The notes below the pieces were generated by a model. It had not been told where the DNA came from and did no database searches. It saw only the letters and a program-made list of their open reading frames with translations. From an uncultured Gammaproteobacteria bacterium (GTDB lineage Bacteria > Patescibacteriota > Microgenomatia > PFEM01 > JAPLYW01): a stretch of DNA of 64,000 nt. Shown one piece after another: positions 1,701 to 25,343 of this stretch. The first letter of the stretch is position 1; every line of letters begins with the position of its first letter. Both the position numbers and the translations under genes were made by a program. The stretch lies in assembly GCA_965230945.1 (NCBI GenBank), contig OZ246397.1, positions 539,925 to 603,924 on the forward strand. Direction: 5' to 3'.

Positions 1701-2762
1701 ATGAAATTAGGACCACTTTCTTCGTTTATTTCTGCTGATTTGGGTATTGATTTAGGGACATCTAACACCCTTGTTTTGGTTCGAGGAAAGGGAATTGTCA
1801 TTAGAGAAGCTTCGGTTGTAACTCGCCATAAAAAAACCAAAGAAGTTTTGGCTATTGGGAGGAAAGCTAAAAAGATGGTAGGCAAAACCCCTCTTAACAT
1901 TGAAACAGTAAAGCCTCTTCAAGATGGAGTCATTGCTGATTTTGATGCCACCGTAGCCATGCTTTCTCATTTTATTCAGAGCCTTTCTAGGGGAGGGAAT
2001 TTGTTTTCTAAATTAGTCAAACCTCGAGTAGCTCTAGGTATTCCTTCAGGAGTAACTGAGGTAGAGAGAAGGGCTGTTCAAGATGCGGCCTTAAGTGCCG
2101 GAGCCAGAAAAGCTTATTTGATAGAAGAACCTATGGCGGCTGTTATAGGTTTAAACTTATCTATTGATCAGCCACAGGGAATTTTAATCGTTGATGTTGG
2201 TGGAGGAACAACGGAAATCGCCTTAATTTCTTTAGGGGGTATTGTCGTTGATCGCTGTTTAAGAATTGCTGGTGATGAGATGGATCAAGCCATTATTAAT
2301 TTTATTAAATTGAAGTACTCCTTGCTTTTAGGACAGGCGACAGCAGAAGATTTGAAGATTCAGCTTGGTTCAGCTTTAGCTCCTAAGGTAGAAGATGGGA
2401 AGGAAAGACAGTTGGTAGTCCGAGGCAGAGATTTAGAATCAGGTTTGCCTAAGTCAATCAAAATCCAAAGCAGTGAAGTTAGAGAGGCGATAGCGCCGGT
2501 TATTCGCCAAATTATTGATCAAATTTCTGATCTGGTTGAAGAGGCCCCGCCTGAATTGGTGACCGATATTGTTGGCAAGGGAATTGTTCTTTGTGGGGGG
2601 GGAGCCTTAATAGCTAATTTGGATAAATTGATTGCTGAAGAAACAAAAATGCCAGTTTGGGTGGCAGATGAACCGCAGACTTGCGTTGTTAGGGGTTGTG
2701 CTAAGTTACTTTCAGATGAGAAACTACTTAATAAGTTTAAAGTAATTGGTGGTTTAAGGTAA
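1701..2762 (+). CDS. mreB: Rod shape-determining actin-like protein MreB
   Basis: DLGIDLGTSNTLV phosphate-1 motif, DVGGGTTEIA, LCGGGALI; followed by mreC/mreD/PBP2. Confidence 0.95.
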   Translation: MKLGPLSSFISADLGIDLGTSNTLVLVRGKGIVIREASVVTRHKKTKEVLAIGRKAKKMVGKTPLNIETVKPLQDGVIADFDATVAMLSHFIQSLSRGGNLFSKLVKPRVALGIPSGVTEVERRAVQDAALSAGARKAYLIEEPMAAVIGLNLSIDQPQGILIVDVGGGTTEIALISLGGIVVDRCLRIAGDEMDQAIINFIKLKYSLLLGQATAEDLKIQLGSALAPKVEDGKERQLVVRGRDLESGLPKSIKIQSSEVREAIAPVIRQIIDQISDLVEEAPPELVTDIVGKGIVLCGGGALIANLDKLIAEETKMPVWVADEPQTCVVRGCAKLLSDEKLLNKFKVIGGLR

Positions 2763-2815
2763 ATTGCTCTTTTAATTTTAAATATTTAAGTAAAAATTAG
2801 GTAAGGGAGGCAAAA

Positions 2816-3214
2816 ATGTTTTGGAAAGTTTTTTGGGGGATTTGGATTGTTCTTGCTGTTCTGTGCATAGGATTTTTTATGTATTACTTAGCTACATTGC
2901 CAGAGGTCAGTTTTCTATTAGAGGAAAACAAGACGCTTAGTGAAGTTGATGTAACTTGTAGTTCTGGTCCTAGTGAAGTAACTGTGGTGTGGGAAAAACT
3001 AGGAAATGACGGAAAGCCGATAACAGAAAGTTTCAGTGCACCAGGGAGCGGATTTCTGAACTTGATTAAATCAAGGCATATTCAAGAAAGTAGGCAAGGG
3101 AGAGAACTATTCATAACACTTAAACCATTTTGGCTTGCTCTTTATTTCTTTTGGAGTGTTTTATTCGTTTCTACAATAATGGTTTTAAGATACATTTTTA
3201 AAACACTAAGATAG
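2816..3214 (+). CDS. Hypothetical membrane protein (N- and C-terminal TM helices)
   Basis: SD-like GGGAGG 6 nt upstream of the ATG; hydrophobic termini; no recognisable family. Confidence 0.4.
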   Translation: MFWKVFWGIWIVLAVLCIGFFMYYLATLPEVSFLLEENKTLSEVDVTCSSGPSEVTVVWEKLGNDGKPITESFSAPGSGFLNLIKSRHIQESRQGRELFITLKPFWLALYFFWSVLFVSTIMVLRYIFKTLR

Positions 3215-3286
3215 CGGTGATATTATATTACTGCATAGTCATTACCGCTATCTTGATCTTCCTCCCTTGCCTTTCTTTATTAGAAG

Positions 3287-3309
3287 AGTCGCTTAAAAGA
3301 CGACTTTTT
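3287..3309 (+). terminator. Rho-independent terminator-like hairpin
   Basis: AGTCG (3287-3291) pairs with CGACT (3301-3305), followed by a T-run; downstream of 2816-3214. Confidence 0.45.
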
Positions 3310-3359
3310 GGTGTAAGAATTCTATAGGATTTAATTATTTGGAAGTTATAGGGCTAAAC

Positions 3360-3388
3360 TTGACAAACTCTATAGGATATGGTATTCT
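3360..3388 (+). promoter_or_regulatory. Sigma70-like promoter candidate
   Basis: TTGACA (3360-3365), 17 nt spacer, TATTCT (3383-3388); upstream of 3491-3676. Confidence 0.35.
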
Positions 3389-3490
3389 AGCATTTAGAAA
3401 TAGGCAGAAGCTTGTTTCTTATCGCACATTACAAATAGGGCAAGAAACGTAGTAATCATGTAAAAAAGAATCGAGTAAGGAGTAAAAGAA

Positions 3491-3676
3491 ATGGAAAAGA
3501 GTCGTAGGAAGAGAACTGTTTGGGGTTATTTCCGCCTTGTAATCCAAATCGTAGTGATTGCAATAGTTGGTATTATGGTAGCGATTGCTATTTTAAGCAG
3601 AGCTGGCTTAAAAGATTTGATATTCGTTATAGTGGTGGGAATAATCTTGCTTGTAATCAGTCGTTTTTGTGACTAA
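3491..3676 (+). CDS. Small two-TM membrane protein, hypothetical
   Basis: SD AAGGAG upstream; basic N-terminus (KSRRKR) then two hydrophobic helices. Confidence 0.4.
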   Translation: MEKSRRKRTVWGYFRLVIQIVVIAIVGIMVAIAILSRAGLKDLIFVIVVGIILLVISRFCD

Positions 3677-3729
3677 TAGTTTTAGTTAAACTTTGCCTGT
3701 GGGGGCATGGCTTTAAGCTAGGAGGAAGA

Positions 3730-3849
3730 ATGATTATTATTGGAACGATTATTTCAGGGATTTTTATTTGCACAGCAGTTTTGCTTATAGGTAACGGTAA
3801 GTTATCTAAAATAATATCTCATGGAAAATCGTATAGAAATAGGTGGTAA
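3730..3849 (+). CDS. Small hydrophobic peptide (39 aa), hypothetical; below the ORF-track size cut-off
   Basis: Manual read: GGAGG 5 nt upstream of ATG 3730; MIIIGTIISGIFICTAVLLIGNGKLSKIISHGKSYRNRW, stop at 3847-3849. Confidence 0.3.
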   Translation: MIIIGTIISGIFICTAVLLIGNGKLSKIISHGKSYRNRW

Positions 3850-3937
3850 GTTTGGTGGCGAGGATTCGTTCTAATTGCGGATTATTATCCTCCTATCAAA
3901 CTCAACCTAAATTTTCTTGCCCTTTTTTTTCAAGAAG

Positions 3938-3960
3938 GTCGCCTAACCAGCGGCTTTTTT
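3938..3960 (+). terminator. Rho-independent terminator
   Basis: GTCGC (3938-3942) pairs with GCGGC (3950-3954) including one G-U pair, 7-nt loop, then T6 (3955-3960). Confidence 0.5.
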
Positions 3961-3987
3961 GTTGGCTTTCTATGTTAGAATAAGGCG

Positions 3988-4788
3988 ATGAAAGATAAGT
4001 GGTTTAAAAAGATAAGCTTTTTATTTTTAGCTTTGGTATTACTTTCTTTTTTACTCTTTTGGTTTGATAAACAAAGTTGGATTTCTCCTCTTTTTGCTTT
4101 AATTAGAAAACCCATTAATAAGACGGAGGAAAGCTTCTTTAATTCTTATAGATATTTTTCTTCTTTTTTTTCTTTTTCAGGCAGAAAAGCTAGTGAAAAA
4201 AAGATTATTAATCTTGAGGGTAAATTACATTATCTGGCTTTAGATCAGAATGAATTGACTTCCTGCTTAGAAGAGAATAAAAGAATAAAAAGATTATTGG
4301 GGGCTTCTTTGCCTATTAAATGGAAATTTATGGAAGCCAAGGTTATTGGTGTTTCAGAGAAAATGAAGATCGCCAGAGGTAAAAGGGATGGCCTGGAAGA
4401 GGGAGTAAATGTTATTTCTGAAGATGTTTTGGTGGGCAAGGTAGTTTTCGTGGATGAAGATAGCAGTTTGGTACAATTGGTCAATGATCCTAGCTCTAAG
4501 ATTCCGGTGGTAGTTAAAAGGCCTAAGATGGCTGGTTTTCAAGCCAGAGGTCTTTTATTTGGGCAGTCAGGGAAGACCTTACTTTTAGATAGGGTACTGC
4601 AGGCAGAATTTATTCAGAAGGGGGACTTGGTAGTGAGTAGTGGCGATGAGGGTTGGTTACCAGATTTATTAATTGGGCAGATAGAAGAAGTTTCTCCCAA
4701 GTCAGCTGAGGTTTATCAAAAAGCGAGTGTTAGTCCCTTAGTTAATTATCGGGGTTTAAGTCTCGTTTTTCTTGTTGTCCGCCAATGA
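3988..4788 (+). CDS. mreC: Rod shape-determining protein MreC
   Basis: N-terminal TM helix, coiled segment, beta-rich C-terminus (GDLVVSSG, LLIGQIEEV); position between mreB and mreD. Confidence 0.85.
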   Translation: MKDKWFKKISFLFLALVLLSFLLFWFDKQSWISPLFALIRKPINKTEESFFNSYRYFSSFFSFSGRKASEKKIINLEGKLHYLALDQNELTSCLEENKRIKRLLGASLPIKWKFMEAKVIGVSEKMKIARGKRDGLEEGVNVISEDVLVGKVVFVDEDSSLVQLVNDPSSKIPVVVKRPKMAGFQARGLLFGQSGKTLLLDRVLQAEFIQKGDLVVSSGDEGWLPDLLIGQIEEVSPKSAEVYQKASVSPLVNYRGLSLVFLVVRQ

Positions 4789-5219
4789 AAGCTTATTTAA
4801 TTTTATTACCAGTTTTTTTTCTAGCTCTTTTACAGGGGTCCTTTTTAGGCTTTAATTTGGTTCTTTTGCTGGTTTTGTTTTATGTAGTTTTAAAGCAGAA
4901 TAGACAGAGTTTATGGGTAGCTTTTTGGTCTGGCTTAATTTTGGATTTGGCCAAAGGTCATTACTTAGGGCTTTCTGCCTTGATCTTTTTGTTTTTTAGT
5001 TTCTTGTTGATTTTATATTTCCGTCGCTTTCAGGCAACTAATTGGCTTTTTTTGGTAATTTTTGTGGCTCTTTTTTCTGGTGCTTATTCTCTTTTGGTTT
5101 ATCGCTTTTTTGATTGGAAAGAAGTTTTGTTTTTAATTATTTTGGCTCTTTTAGTACGCTTCATCTTAAGATTTTTCTCTATAGAATTGGCAACTAAACA
5201 GATAAGATTAAGGAATTAA
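4785..5219 (+). CDS. mreD: Rod shape-determining protein MreD
   Basis: ATGA overlap with mreC; about 5 TM helices; synteny. Confidence 0.7.
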   Translation: MKAYLILLPVFFLALLQGSFLGFNLVLLLVLFYVVLKQNRQSLWVAFWSGLILDLAKGHYLGLSALIFLFFSFLLILYFRRFQATNWLFLVIFVALFSGAYSLLVYRFFDWKEVLFLIILALLVRFILRFFSIELATKQIRLRN

Positions 5220-6854
5220 ATGGATAACAAAACACGAGTTTATATTTTCTTAGGCTTTTTAATTATTGGTTTCCTGCTTTTAACAGCTCGTTTATTTGAA
5301 CTGCAGATAGTTTTTGGTTCTAAAAACAGAGTTTTAGCTGAGGGTAACAGAATTAAAAAAGAGATTATTCCTGCTCCTCGAGGGATTATTTACGACCGTT
5401 ATGGTAGGGAGTTGGTAAGAAACATACCTCTTTACCGACTAAAGATTGAGAACGAACAGTGCAAGGATGAAGATAAAGATTGCTTTAGGATAATTTCCCG
5501 GGAAGAAGCCTTGAGTTTAGAAGCAAAAGGAGATGTAGATAATCTACAAATAAACATTGGTCGTAATTATTTATATAAAGAATCTTTAGCTCATGTTTTA
5601 GGTTACCTAGGAGAGGCAACTAAAGAGGAAGTAGAGTTAGGCAAATTTAAAATGGGAGATTTAGTGGGGCGAATGGGGGTAGAGGAAGAATATGATTATC
5701 TATTACGAGGCCAAGATGGAGGTGTAATTTACGAAGTTGATACTCATGGAAATAGAATTAGAGAAATTGGACGGGTTGAACCCGTACCAGGAAAAGATTT
5801 ACATCTTACCATTGATGCCGAGCTTTCTGCCAAAGCCTATGAAGCCTTGGGAGGCCAAACGGGAGCCATAGTTGTTTCTAGGGTAGATGGTAATGAGATT
5901 TTAGCTTTAGTCTCTTCGCCTGCCTTTAATCCTAACCTTTTAAGTAGGACAGATGGTGAAGGTGATAGGCTAACTAAAAAAGTTCAAGAATTATTTGATA
6001 ATCCTAATAAACCTTTTTTTAATCGGGCCATTAGCGGGGTTTATCCACCTGCTTCGACTTTTAAAATTGTAACCGCCGTTGCCGGTTTAGAAGAAGAAAA
6101 GATTGATAAAGATACCATTTGGAATGATACCGGTGAAATAAGAGTAGGCGAATATGTTTACCGGAACTGGTACTTCATTCAATACGGCAAGACAGAGGGG
6201 GAGATTAATTTAATAACAGCTATTAAACGATCCACAGATACTTTTTTTTACAAGGTAGGTGAGTGGGTGGGCCCAACTCGTTTATCTGAATGGGCAACAG
6301 CTTTTGGTTTAGGCCAAAAGACTGGCATTGCTCTTCCAGGAGAAACGAAGGGTTCTGTTCCCAGTCCAAAGGAAAAAGAAAGATTGAAAGGCGAACGATG
6401 GTTTTTAGGAAATACTTATCATTTTGCTATTGGCCAGGGAGATATCTTAACTACTCCTTTACAAATTAATACTATGACTAGTGTTATTGCCAATGATGGT
6501 GAATTATGTTCTCCCATGGTATGGAAAGAGGAAAAAAAGAACTGTCAGAACTTAAGACTTAAGCAAGAATCTTTAAAGTTAGTTAAAGAGGGAATGAAAG
6601 AGGCTTGCTCGCCAAAAGGAACAGCTTTTCCTTTCTTTGAATTTAAACCTCAAGTGGCTTGTAAAACGGGAACAGCTGAATTTGGTGATCCGCAAAACAA
6701 AACTCATGCTTGGTTGACTGCTTTTGCTCCCTTTTCAGAAGATGGCAAAGCAGAAATTGTGGCCACGGCTCTAGTAGAAAAGGGTGGTGAAGGTTCTTAT
6801 ATAGCTGCGCCTATAGTCAAAAAGGTAATGGAGTATTATTTCCATGAAAGATGA
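5220..6854 (+). CDS. mrdA: Penicillin-binding protein 2 (elongasome transpeptidase)
   Basis: PAPRGIIYDRYG, PASTFKIVTA (SxxK), KTGTAE (KTG); follows mreBCD. Confidence 0.9.
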   Translation: MDNKTRVYIFLGFLIIGFLLLTARLFELQIVFGSKNRVLAEGNRIKKEIIPAPRGIIYDRYGRELVRNIPLYRLKIENEQCKDEDKDCFRIISREEALSLEAKGDVDNLQINIGRNYLYKESLAHVLGYLGEATKEEVELGKFKMGDLVGRMGVEEEYDYLLRGQDGGVIYEVDTHGNRIREIGRVEPVPGKDLHLTIDAELSAKAYEALGGQTGAIVVSRVDGNEILALVSSPAFNPNLLSRTDGEGDRLTKKVQELFDNPNKPFFNRAISGVYPPASTFKIVTAVAGLEEEKIDKDTIWNDTGEIRVGEYVYRNWYFIQYGKTEGEINLITAIKRSTDTFFYKVGEWVGPTRLSEWATAFGLGQKTGIALPGETKGSVPSPKEKERLKGERWFLGNTYHFAIGQGDILTTPLQINTMTSVIANDGELCSPMVWKEEKKNCQNLRLKQESLKLVKEGMKEACSPKGTAFPFFEFKPQVACKTGTAEFGDPQNKTHAWLTAFAPFSEDGKAEIVATALVEKGGEGSYIAAPIVKKVMEYYFHER

Positions 6855-21650: not shown

Positions 21651-22133
21651 ATGAAGATTACCTTAGAACAAGTTAAAAAATTAAGAGCTAAAACCAGAGT
21701 TGGTATTATGGATTGCCGTCAAGCTTTAGAAGAATGTGGGGGTGATTTTATTAAGGCCGAGAAATGGCTTAAGGAAAAAGGTTTTAAAGCAAGTAAGAAA
21801 AGAGAAAGTAGAGAAACTTCTCAAGGTATGATTGAAGTTTACAGTCATAGTGATGGCAAGATTGTTGGTATGGTTGAGCTTTTATGTGAGACTGATTTTG
21901 TTTGCCGCAACAAAGAGTTTAAAAAACTGGCTCATGAATTGGCTATGCAGGTAGTTGCCATGAATCCTAAGGATAAAAAAGAACTCTTAAAACAGCCTTG
22001 GATTAGAGATGAATCGCAGACAATTGAAGAGCTGCTTAATAGTTTGATTGCCAAAACCGGAGAAAATGTTAAAATTGGGAGAATAGCTAGGTTTGAACTT
22101 GGGGAAGAACAAAAGAGGGAAAAAGCAAAATAA
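21651..22133 (+). CDS. tsf: Elongation factor Ts, short form (160 aa)
   Basis: UBA-like N-terminus VKKLRAKTRVGIMDCRQALEECGGDFIKAEKWLKEKG, ETDFVCRN; position after rpsB. Confidence 0.85.
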   Translation: MKITLEQVKKLRAKTRVGIMDCRQALEECGGDFIKAEKWLKEKGFKASKKRESRETSQGMIEVYSHSDGKIVGMVELLCETDFVCRNKEFKKLAHELAMQVVAMNPKDKKELLKQPWIRDESQTIEELLNSLIAKTGENVKIGRIARFELGEEQKREKAK

Positions 22134-22718: not shown

Positions 22719-23894
22719 ATGTGGTTAACCTTAATCACTTTTTTAATCGTTTTTTCCGTTATTATCTTAGTCCATGAGCTAGGTCATTTTTGGATAGCCA
22801 GAAAAGCCGGTATTAAGGTAGAGGAGTTTGGTTTTGGTTTTCCCCCTCGGCTTACGGGAAAAAAGATTGGTAAAACCTTTTTTTCCTTAAACTGGTTGCC
22901 TTTTGGAGGTTTTGTCAGGCTTTTTGGTGAGGAACTAGTCAAGGATTACAAAAAGAAAGGTAAGGATTACAAAGAGGCTTTTTGGTATAAATCCAAGCGG
23001 GCGAGAATAGCCGTTTTAGTGGCCGGTGTTTTAGCTAATTTTCTTTTGGCTATTGTTTGTTTTTCTATAGTTTATTCTATTTCCGGTATTCCCACTCAAA
23101 CTGATAGGGTAAATATAGTGGCTGTTTTACCTGATTCCCCAGCTGCAGAACTGGATTTAAAGGAAAATGATATTGTTTTGAGTGTTGATGAAGTGAAAGT
23201 TAATGACTTAAATCACTTTGTTGATTTAATTGATCAAAGAAAAGGTAAAGAAGTTAAGCTTTTGCTGGAAAGAAAAAAGGACAACCCTTGTTTAGAAGGA
23301 ATTTTAGATGATGAACAGAAATTTAGTTGTCAAGATAGCAACTTGCTTTTAGGAATAGAACCTCGAGAAAATCCGCCTGAGGGAGAGGGCTCTTTAGGGG
23401 TTCTTGTTTCTAATGTTGAAGTTAAAAAATATCCTCTGTGGCAGATGCCTTTTAGGGGAACAGTTGAAGGTTTTAAGGTAGCCTTTGCTTTGGTGGGCTT
23501 AATTGTTTCTGGTTTAGGCAAGATGTTGCTTAATTTAGTTGCCCACGGTCAGGTGCCTACAGAAGTGGCTGGACCAGTAGGCATTATGCAAATGACTGGC
23601 ATGGTAGCCAAGTCGGGGATAATAGCTGTCTTACAATTTACAGGTTTGATTTCTGTTAACTTGGCTATTATAAATGTCTTGCCTTTCCCGGCTTTAGATG
23701 GGGGAAGATTGGTTTTTATTCTTTATGAAGCGGTGACTAAAAAAAGACCTAAACCTTCTTTTGAATCATGGACTAATGCCCTTGGTATGGCCTTTTTAAT
23801 AGCCCTTTTGGTTTTGGTAACCATCAACGATATAAAAAGACTAATGGTGACCACTAATATTCTACAAAAGATAAGGGCGATTTTGCCGTTTTAG
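22719..23894 (+). CDS. rseP: Site-2 protease RseP/RasP (M50) with PDZ domain
   Basis: HELGHFWIARKAGI zinc motif, PDZ-like SPAAELDLKENDIVLSVD, LPFPALDGG. Confidence 0.85.
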   Translation: MWLTLITFLIVFSVIILVHELGHFWIARKAGIKVEEFGFGFPPRLTGKKIGKTFFSLNWLPFGGFVRLFGEELVKDYKKKGKDYKEAFWYKSKRARIAVLVAGVLANFLLAIVCFSIVYSISGIPTQTDRVNIVAVLPDSPAAELDLKENDIVLSVDEVKVNDLNHFVDLIDQRKGKEVKLLLERKKDNPCLEGILDDEQKFSCQDSNLLLGIEPRENPPEGEGSLGVLVSNVEVKKYPLWQMPFRGTVEGFKVAFALVGLIVSGLGKMLLNLVAHGQVPTEVAGPVGIMQMTGMVAKSGIIAVLQFTGLISVNLAIINVLPFPALDGGRLVFILYEAVTKKRPKPSFESWTNALGMAFLIALLVLVTINDIKRLMVTTNILQKIRAILPF

Positions 23895-23919
23895 ATTTTC
23901 TGCTATACTGAATTAGTCT

Positions 23920-24036
23920 ATGCTTTATTCAAAACTTTTTGGAAAAACAATAAAGGCAGCTCCTAAAAAAGCAGAAGCTATTTCCCATCAGTATCTTGTT
24001 AAAGCTGATTTTATAATTAATTTACTTGAAGTTTAA
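23920..24036 (+). pseudogene. proS: 38-codon stub matching the N-terminus of bacterial-type prolyl-tRNA synthetase
   Basis: Manual read: MLYSKLFGKTIKAAPKKAEAISHQYLVKADFIINLLEV-stop. Compare E. coli ProRS [32 protein letters not shown]. It sits at the rseP-proS position conserved in, for example, B. subtilis. Confidence 0.55.
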
Positions 24037-24043
24037 ATTTTTT

Positions 24044-24883
24044 ATGAAAAGAATTGTTATTCATATTAATCCAGATTTGGATGCTGTTGCTTCAGTTTGG
24101 CTTATCAAAAGATTTTTGCCTCGTTGGGAAAAAGCAGAAATAGGTTTCTGTCAGGCAGAAACAACTTTTGATGGGAAGCCAGTAGATAGTGATCCTGATA
24201 TTTTACATCTTGATGTTGGTTTAGGTAAACTTGATCATCATCAAACTGATTGTTTTACTTCGGCAGTTAAACTCACTTTAGATTTCATCTTAGAAAAAAG
24301 AAAAGGACAAGAGTTGAGCCCTTTAGATTTAGAGGCTTTAGAGCTCATGGTAGAAACGATTAATGAAATTGATAATGCGCGAGATTTGAATTGGCCGGAA
24401 GTTAAAAAAGAGCGTTATGATTTTTATCTCCATTCTATTTTAAGTGGTTTAAGAAGAATGGGGAAAACTGATATTGAACTAGTTGAATACGGTTTTTTAG
24501 GGCTAAATGCTGTTTTTAAGAATCTTAAAGCAGGGATAAAAGCCAAAGAAGAAATAAAAAAGGGGATTGAATTTCAGACTCCTTGGGGAAAGGCAATTGC
24601 CTTGGAGACCGGTAATGAATTATTTTTATGGGAAAGTGAAAAAGCTGGTTATTATTTAGTGGTTAAAAAGGATCCTGACGATGGTGATGTTAGAATTTAT
24701 GCTCGTTATGATAGTGATGTTGATTTGAAAAATGTTTATCAAAAATTTAAAGAGATGGATAAAGAATCTGATTGGTTTTTACACGCTTCCGGTAAGTTGT
24801 TATTAAATGGATCTCGGGTTAAAAAGATGAAACCAACAAAGTTAAGTTTAGAGCAAGTAATTGGGGTGTTGAAAAATGGTTGA
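24044..24883 (+). CDS. DHH-family phosphoesterase-like protein
   Basis: HINPDLDAVAS (DHH motif I), HLDVG, KLDHHQ (motif III); no DHHA1 GGGH seen. ATG 24044 is preferred over TTG 24026. Confidence 0.45.
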   Translation: MKRIVIHINPDLDAVASVWLIKRFLPRWEKAEIGFCQAETTFDGKPVDSDPDILHLDVGLGKLDHHQTDCFTSAVKLTLDFILEKRKGQELSPLDLEALELMVETINEIDNARDLNWPEVKKERYDFYLHSILSGLRRMGKTDIELVEYGFLGLNAVFKNLKAGIKAKEEIKKGIEFQTPWGKAIALETGNELFLWESEKAGYYLVVKKDPDDGDVRIYARYDSDVDLKNVYQKFKEMDKESDWFLHASGKLLLNGSRVKKMKPTKLSLEQVIGVLKNG

Positions 24884-25199
24884 TTGTATTTTTTGTCAAA
24901 TTGCTCAAAAAAAGATACCAGCAGAGATTGTTTATGAAGATAAAAAGATCATTGCTTTTAATGATGTTAACCCTAAAGCACCTGTCCATATCTTAATTAT
25001 TCCTAAGAAACATATTAAAGATTTTATTAGTTCTGGAAAATTCTTTCCTAAGATTTTAAAAGTTGCTAAAGACTTAATTAAAAAGTATAATTTAGATAGG
25101 AATGGTTATAGATTAGTAGTCAATGGCAGGAGTGCAGCGCTTGTCGATCATTTACATTTACATCTTTTAGGAAAAATAACTGTTGATAGGAATGTTTAG
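24876..25199 (+). CDS. HIT (histidine triad) family nucleotide hydrolase
   Basis: CIFCQI zinc-like start, AFNDVNPKAPVHILIIPKKH, HLHLHLLG triad. The C-terminal half (NGRSAALVDHLHLHLLGK) is off-consensus. Confidence 0.85.
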   Translation: MVDCIFCQIAQKKIPAEIVYEDKKIIAFNDVNPKAPVHILIIPKKHIKDFISSGKFFPKILKVAKDLIKKYNLDRNGYRLVVNGRSAALVDHLHLHLLGKITVDRNV

Positions 25200-25236
25200 G
25201 GGAAGTTATTCTAATAGGGTAAATTATTTTTAAGTA

Positions 25237-25307
25237 CGGGGCGTAGCTCAAAATAGAGCAGCGTACTTGGTGTACGATGTATAGTGGTTTAAATCCATTC
25301 GCCCCGA
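25237..25307 (+). tRNA. Aberrant tRNA-Pro(UGG)-like gene, 71 nt, no encoded CCA
   Basis: Hand-folded cloverleaf. Acceptor CGGGGCG/CGCCCCG with C1:G72 and A73 (bacterial tRNA-Pro identity). D arm GCTC-AAAATA-GAGC (no G18G19). Anticodon arm GCGTA-CTTGGTG-TACGA (anticodon TGG at 25268-25270, U at position 37, 27:43 mismatch). T arm AGTGG-TTTAAAT-CCATT (no C56). Confidence 0.65.
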
Positions 25308-25343
25308 CAAATTTAAAGAGATTAAGAAATAATATGATTTTCT

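Follow-up and report, generated by a model that had tools for sequence, protein, structure and literature searches.

What does a 38-codon ORF represent that sits directly after rseP, at the position where related genomes carry proS, the gene for prolyl-tRNA synthetase (ProRS), and which enzyme would serve proline where so little of that gene is left? ProRS exists in two subgroups and horizontal transfer of aminoacyl-tRNA synthetases (aaRS) is frequent (PMC5388404). We analysed a 64-kb stretch of a 615-kb contig (the window, 64,000 nucleotides in all) and compared it with relatives found by RseP scans of species-representative genomes and metagenome contigs, which provided about 45 Patescibacteria/Microgenomates loci onto which the window's proteins were mapped with tblastn. 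In all likelihood the ORF is a pseudogene fragment of a bacterial-type proS, its task presumably now being carried out by the archaeal-type ProRS of a portable gene block. The first-pass annotation of this DNA had placed the ORF just past rseP, recognised in it the N-terminus of bacterial-type ProRS and read it as the stub of an ancestral gene; its coordinates are exact, the start lying 25 nt past the rseP stop codon (TAG, 23892–23894).

The proposed resemblance was borne out by a profile search of the 38-aa peptide. Three of the 18,950 NCBIfam models searched match it, all of them for bacterial-type ProRS (NF006625, E=1.8e-5; TIGR00409, 3.7e-3; NF008979, 4.4e-3), and in each case stub residues 1–32/34 pair with profile positions 1–32/34. 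Such full-length models were needed since Pfam has none for the ProRS N-terminus, and a Pfam search of the peptide gave no match. With tblastn against relatives the stub lands at the start of intact proS genes (E=1e-8 to 2e-12), and its residues 1–32 are identical to the intact 405-aa ProRS of locus L045 at 26 of 32 positions (81%) and to long-form ProRS at about 60%. The N-terminal segment of bacterial-type ProRS, M-x-x-S-x-L-F-x-x-T-x-[KR]-x(6-8)-SH-x-L-[LMV]-x-[KR]-[AG]-G-F-I, is present, and the G30 to D replacement is the sole change at an otherwise invariant site, leaving the stub nearly without decay; a recent deletion would account for this, and so would selection on the ORF. Similarity to ProRS gives out near codon 32, after ...ADFI; in DNA the alignment runs from the 3' end of rseP across the spacer and 96 nt into proS. 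The tail, INLLEV and the stop, is not demonstrably ProRS; it may derive from the 3' end of proS, although its local alignment with that end of the L042 gene falls short of significance (p about 0.05–0.07).

Table 1. Features of the locus (window coordinates unless a relative is named).
Feature	Coordinates	Strand	Evidence or remark
rseP (M50 site-2 protease with PDZ)	22719–23894	+	Pfam Peptidase_M50 1.6e-56 and PDZ
Extended -10-like element TGCTATACT, putative proS operon promoter	23901–23909	+	10 nt before stub ATG; conserved
Stub ORF, 38 codons	23920–24036	+	reads MLYSKLFGKTIKAAPKKAEAISHQYLVKADFIINLLEV, then stop
Codons 1–32 of former bacterial-type proS	23920–24015	+	NCBIfam matches, L045 identity, nucleotide alignment
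Tail INLLEV and TAA stop, non-homologous; deletion junction region	24016–24036	+	ProRS alignment ends here
g279-to-AsnA-like unit, 7.07 kb	24039–31112	+	blastn 79.7% DNA identity to L060 1323–8348
g279, conserved 279-aa protein, DHH-like motif	24044–24883	+	weak Pfam matches alone (DHH, ChrB_C)
HIT-family protein, last ancestral gene ahead of inserted block	24876–25199	+	Pfam HIT 3.1e-18, synteny
Atypical tRNA-Pro(UGG)-like gene, first block element	25237–25307	+	Rfam tRNA 46.2 bits (gathering score 29)
Archaeal/eukaryote-type ProRS (ProRS_A)	25344–26792	+	TIGR00408 526 bits (cutoff 437)
256-aa ProRS catalytic-core paralog	26801–27571	+	both class II arginines (motif 2, motif 3) lost
475-aa full-length divergent ProRS paralog	27568–28995	+	TIGR00408 208 bits (cutoff 437); PDB 1nj8 2.7e-45
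Peptidase_S66 (LdcA/MccF-family) protein	28977–29912	+	NF008424 2.7e-40; Pfam S66 on orthologues
AsnRS catalytic-core paralog without anticodon-binding domain (AsnA-like)	29924–31057	+	last gene of block
rpsU (S21), first ancestral gene past block	31321–31509	+	Pfam Ribosomal_S21, synteny with L042 and L004
tRNA-like copy in L060	2505–2576		
tRNA-like copy in L113	1637–1708		
tRNA-like copy in L110	1962–2033		
tRNA-like copy in L111	8626–8697		
tRNA-like copy in L112	3573–3644		
tRNA-like copy in L114	2527–2600		
tRNA-like copy in L115	147–218		
tRNA-like copy in L109	9916–9986		

What is missing is most of the gene. About 1.1 kb, some 370 codons, is gone, including all three class II motifs and the anticodon-binding domain, and the remaining peptide, which ends at codon 38, scores 23.9 bits against a whole-protein cutoff of 558. 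Without these domains it cannot be a synthetase, and without a catalytic core it is not a ProRS family member but a gene fragment, in agreement with the proposal that the ancestral proS was truncated, 32 codons being left and the body of the gene deleted. No ProRS similarity was found in any frame from the stub to g279, and no further bacterial-type ProRS signal in the 64-kb window. A protein search with a 47-aa probe (stub residues 1–32 plus the consensus of relatives) returned three candidates, one of which is the stub itself, as a gene call in a JGI assembly. Two other assemblies, L108 and L119, match the window at 100% identity, stub included, along stretches of 10.9 and 15.4 kb and may come from the same population as the source; apart from these, none of the relatives compared is nearer than about 70% RseP identity.

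The neighbourhood of the stub identifies its ancestral state. RseP is the conserved left neighbour of proS, with orthologues in L001–L008 and L037–L070, and is preceded in the window by rpsB, a short tsf and frr, all four genes of the array that had been named. The EF-Ts encoded by this tsf (21651–22133, + strand) has 160 aa and matches Pfam EF_TS positions 3–78 of 204; the short form occurs in all relatives examined. That such arrays end in proS, as had been expected, was seen in at least 12 related contigs, where an intact bacterial-type proS follows rseP at a distance of 24–36 nt. The usual order is rpsB-tsf-frr-rseP-proS(bacterial)-g279-HIT-(rpsU)-yqeY-ybeY-dnaX, complete in L042 (RseP 68% identical), L045 (59%) and L054, and followed in L057 as far as the contig reaches (into g279); proS stands directly after rseP also in L040, L041, L053, L058, L005, L052, L055 and others. 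The bacterial ProRS of these relatives has either a short form of 405–412 aa or a long form of 558 aa. In L004 (11176–11780) and L002 (4046–5623), 0.6–1.5 kb without a convincing ORF separates rseP from an intact proS. Orthologues of g279, which carries DxD and DHH motifs, follow proS in L042, L045, L054 and L057, and in the last three the end of proS and the beginning of g279 overlap (ATGA/GTGA), therefore proS was ancestrally the first gene of an operon running into g279 and HIT.

Where is the synthetase then? The intact archaeal-type ProRS that had been noticed 1.3 kb downstream passes the TIGR00408 equivalog cutoff, contains the Pfam domains tRNA-synt_2b, HGTP_anticodon and ProRS-C_1, and is presumably the working prolyl-tRNA synthetase here. 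It was correctly placed in an accessory block, in which a tRNA-Pro-like gene, ProRS_A, two ProRS paralogs, an S66 peptidase and an AsnRS-core paralog follow each other in this order. The 6.1 kb that separate HIT (end 25199) from rpsU (start 31321) are absent in L042, L045, L054, L003 and L004, and GC content is 29–33% across 24–31 kb versus 35–37% in the flanks. The ancestral gene thus stands at the same locus in relatives, and the replacement is of the other type and lies in DNA which those relatives lack. L060 and L113 have the block at this very site between HIT and rpsU; in L110, L111, L112 and L115 it is located elsewhere, and there is a three-gene version at yet another site in L114 and the ProRS alone in L109. 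The block is thus portable, and as a 7-kb unit with g279 and HIT it demonstrably moves by recombination from one related genome to another. A search for direct or inverted repeats, att sites and a second RNA at its right edge gave only AT-rich chance matches.

ProRS_A and its orthologues form a tight clade (64–82% identity), after which there is a gap to 49%. Since the nearest homologues outside this clade, at 49%, are from Patescibacteria, the donor was probably another bacterium and not an archaeon. Same-site orthologues are only 74–82% identical to ProRS_A, and the cassette is therefore not a recent arrival. This bears on the suggestion that the displacement had been caught in the act: it holds for the stub, which is undecayed, but not for the acquisition of the cassette.

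The relatives display a whole range of states of this locus. L060 (1–8934) is a mosaic: in DNA its rseP part and rpsU-yqeY share 87% and 91% identity with L042 (97% protein identity in the RseP C-terminal region), a genome with an intact long proS and no block, while its central 7.09 kb, which run from g279 through the AsnRS-like gene, agree with window positions 24039–31112 at 79.7% and with L042 at only 68%. Therefore recombination put a g279-HIT-cassette unit in place of proS-g279-HIT in a genome like L042, both junctions being in intergenic DNA, and in L060 a single recombination both removed proS and brought the cassette. Homology between the window and L060 starts 3 nt past the stub stop, and at the former proS position L060 has a 188-aa P-loop ORF (739–1305). 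L114 likely represents a stage at which the two ProRS types coexist: of a bacterial-type ProRS the contig has the final 65 residues, in frame up to the stop (3–200), 2.4 kb upstream of the cassette (2527–6268), with an aminotransferase and a 343-aa class II-like gene in between. L113 is a clean proS deletion, in which 20 nt, TATAAT among them, separate the rseP stop from the g279 ATG. L039 has a shorter stub (5616–5669) behind the same promoter, consisting of MRYSKLFGK (9 codons) and 8 unrelated codons; the junction recurs in L043 (4090–4165), whose RseP C-terminal region is 95% identical to that of L039, but there the ATG is lost, therefore the L039-type stub is decaying.

In three further relatives the proS slot itself has been refilled. 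The archaeal-type ProRS that L003 (5932–7359), L047 (4010–5437) and L051 (11192–12619) carry between rseP and g279 shares 43–46% identity with ProRS_A, and an NJ tree places it with other sequences; here an archaeal-type ProRS of a different lineage displaced proS in situ and independently. From this range of states it follows that the clade has seen at least four losses or replacements of bacterial proS. A split proS in L118 (6745–8196, GW2011_GWA2_40_6; ORFs of 81 and 404 aa) was considered as a comparable stub and rejected, as it is a long-type gene at a locus not next to rseP; the split is probably a frameshift or a sequencing error.

A feature common to most of the proS-less versions is the DNA just upstream of the lost gene. 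In the nucleotide alignment the extended -10-like element TGCTATACT of the rseP-proS spacer is conserved in L042, in L045 (TGTTATACT) and in L039 and L043 (TGCTATAAT), and the TATAAT of L113 occupies the corresponding position, 8 nt ahead of the g279 start codon. A sigma-70 consensus scan did not call TGCTATACT, since there is no -35 match, and we take it as the putative promoter of the proS operon. The distance from the -10 element to the ATG is 6–10 nt, which suggests a leaderless or near-leaderless proS mRNA. The window, L113, L039 and L043 all retain this presumed promoter and L060 does not. The deletions that survived would then be those that kept the promoter, which may still feed the downstream genes.

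The history of the window can be pictured as follows. A short (about 405 aa, INS-less) bacterial-type proS most likely followed rseP in the ancestor of this Microgenomates lineage. With the block present the bacterial gene would have become redundant and been removed; alternatively, the same recombination event could have brought the block and removed proS, as in L060, and in the window deletion and insertion may have been one event or two. The 32 codons that remained run into a handful of codons, either unrelated or from the 3' end of the gene, and then a stop. The deletion would have spared the promoter and start codon, apparently because they still drive g279, HIT and probably the cassette genes. 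We infer the order of events, the leaderless start and the translational coupling discussed below, and most likely the stub itself is a non-functional scar.

Could the ORF instead be kept for its own sake? As a leader or uORF with a near-leaderless start it might feed ribosomes to g279 by termination-reinitiation and be preserved by selection, which we consider rather unlikely. The stub is intact, it resembles L045 no less than intact ProRS N-termini resemble one another, and its stop is 7 nt upstream of the g279 ATG, g279 having no obvious SD. Coupling would also be ancestral, given the overlap of proS with g279 in relatives, and the independent 17-codon ORF of L039 similarly stops 6 nt before the next gene, which is SAM-hydroxide-adenosyltransferase-like. 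However, L043 has lost the stub's start codon and L113 has no stub at all, and both keep the promoter; the stub ORF is therefore dispensable, and it is doubtful that the ORF itself is needed in the window.

Less probable still is that the bacterial-type proS was relocated, an intact copy residing elsewhere in the genome and the stub being the scar of its translocation. The search for a remaining copy covered the 64-kb window of a contig of at least 615 kb, and in L114 both ProRS types do occur close together. Within the window, however, there is no second copy; the cassette-bearing L060, L113 and L111 likewise have no proS after rseP, and duplicate aaRS are rarely kept in the small genomes of Patescibacteria. 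That the ORF, short and AT-rich as it is and found in three assemblies possibly from one population, is an artefact, be it a chance ORF, a frameshift in an otherwise intact proS or a chimeric assembly, is highly improbable in view of its specific matches to ProRS profiles and 81% identity to a relative, of the 840 nt that follow, which are the conserved g279 gene with no frame similar to ProRS, and of similar proS-less junctions in independent metagenomes (L113, L039, L043, L060).

A scar of proS displaced by an archaeal-type gene is a case of a known process, unusually well documented, and not of a new kind. Displacement of bacterial-type ProRS by an archaeal/eukaryote-like ProRS in bacteria was reportedly described by Wolf and colleagues in 1999 and by Woese and colleagues in 2000. 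The present case is alike in that relatives use the bacterial type and this lineage carries an archaeal type above the equivalog cutoff, and in the patchy distribution of the two types among close relatives; it differs in that a remnant of the displaced gene is still at the ancestral locus and that relatives show a graded series of states. In-situ gene displacement within conserved operons is said to have been described in 2003 in Genome Biology by Omelchenko and colleagues. L003, L047 and L051, with their archaeal-type ProRS exactly in the proS slot, fit this pattern, as does L060, where recombination in homologous flanks exchanged the whole proS-g279-HIT segment, whereas in the window the replacement gene lies outside the slot, in a multi-gene block downstream, and a stub was left. 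Replacement of aaRS by transfer is usually inferred from trees, while here a single small clade preserves the scar together with most of the intermediate states, namely coexistence of the two types, stubs that differ in length, a stub in decay, a clean deletion and a recombinant mosaic. They show the mechanics of the swap, with recombination of a multi-gene unit and retention of the old promoter, and its recurrence at a single locus. They also show that short, conserved-looking ORFs beside core genes can be gene scars.

The cassette is a more unusual item than the stub. With three ProRS-family genes and an odd tRNA it is rare in current databases. Its first element, the tRNA-like gene, was missed by ARAGORN and by the whole-window Rfam run and came to light only when the region was searched alone; its orthologues are called tRNA-Pro by ARAGORN. 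Nine orthologous copies are each found directly upstream of ProRS_A, about 20–65 nt before its start, and no such element was found upstream of the more distant archaeal-type ProRS genes of L116, L117 and L003. The cloverleaf is well supported: 93.9% of cells are paired, six pairs have compensatory changes, among them the D-loop/T-loop tertiary pair (G-C, G-U, A-U), and none of 500 shuffles reaches the observed score. Of the canonical features of tRNA-Pro the RNA has the covarying stems, the UGG anticodon and C1-G72/A73, but it lacks the purine (G) at 37, G18G19 and the unpaired 32/38 of a canonical elongator. The anticodon loop C[U/C]UGGUG, with U37 and pairable C32/G38, is invariant in 9/9 copies; all nine share a G27·A43 mismatch, and their 6-nt D loop contains at most one G and no GG. 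The other tRNAs of these organisms are canonical.

What is the role of such an RNA? The candidates are a working tRNA, a tRNA with a special purpose and a leader that mimics tRNA. Precedents exist for the latter two, since Staphylococcus has cell-wall tRNA-Gly species with altered D and T loops, and the E. coli thrS operator mimics the anticodon arm of tRNA-Thr. The cassette RNA resembles such non-proteinogenic or regulatory RNAs in having no G18G19, in U37 and the possible C32-G38 pair, and in its place, always upstream of the synthetase gene; it differs from them in being a complete cloverleaf with C1-G72/A73, CCA being encoded in L114, and for these reasons it may simply be a working tRNA.

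The two ProRS paralogs add to this picture. The 256-aa core paralog is probably inactive, to judge from the lost arginines. The full-length one keeps both the motif 2 and motif 3 arginines and the T/E of RPTSE, but its pocket is altered: most pocket residues are swapped for residues invariant within its own family, 29–34 of 91 ProRS-invariant columns are retained, and it fails the TIGR00408 equivalog cutoff. HisZ is a catalytically dead aaRS paralog that serves as a partner subunit (mentioned in PMC5388404). Similarly, the 256-aa protein has no motif 2/3 arginines and always adjoins the full-length paralog, whereas the parent family here is ProRS and a role as partner is hypothetical. It is conceivable, though we propose it only tentatively, that the block is a dedicated tRNA-dependent module, with the atypical tRNA-Pro-like RNA, whose anticodon loop may be of 5 nt, as a non-ribosomal carrier or as a tRNA-mimic leader for autocontrol of ProRS. 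In the carrier version the 475-aa paralog, which looks active, would charge the RNA together with its inactive core partner, and the charged RNA would supply the S66 peptidase and the AsnRS-core enzyme in a pathway of the cell wall or of small molecules. If the module exists, the housekeeping ProRS would ride along with it, which would explain the spread of a whole block, and not a single gene, displacing proS. The 475-aa family itself is rare, with about 28 clusters among 5.8 billion proteins.
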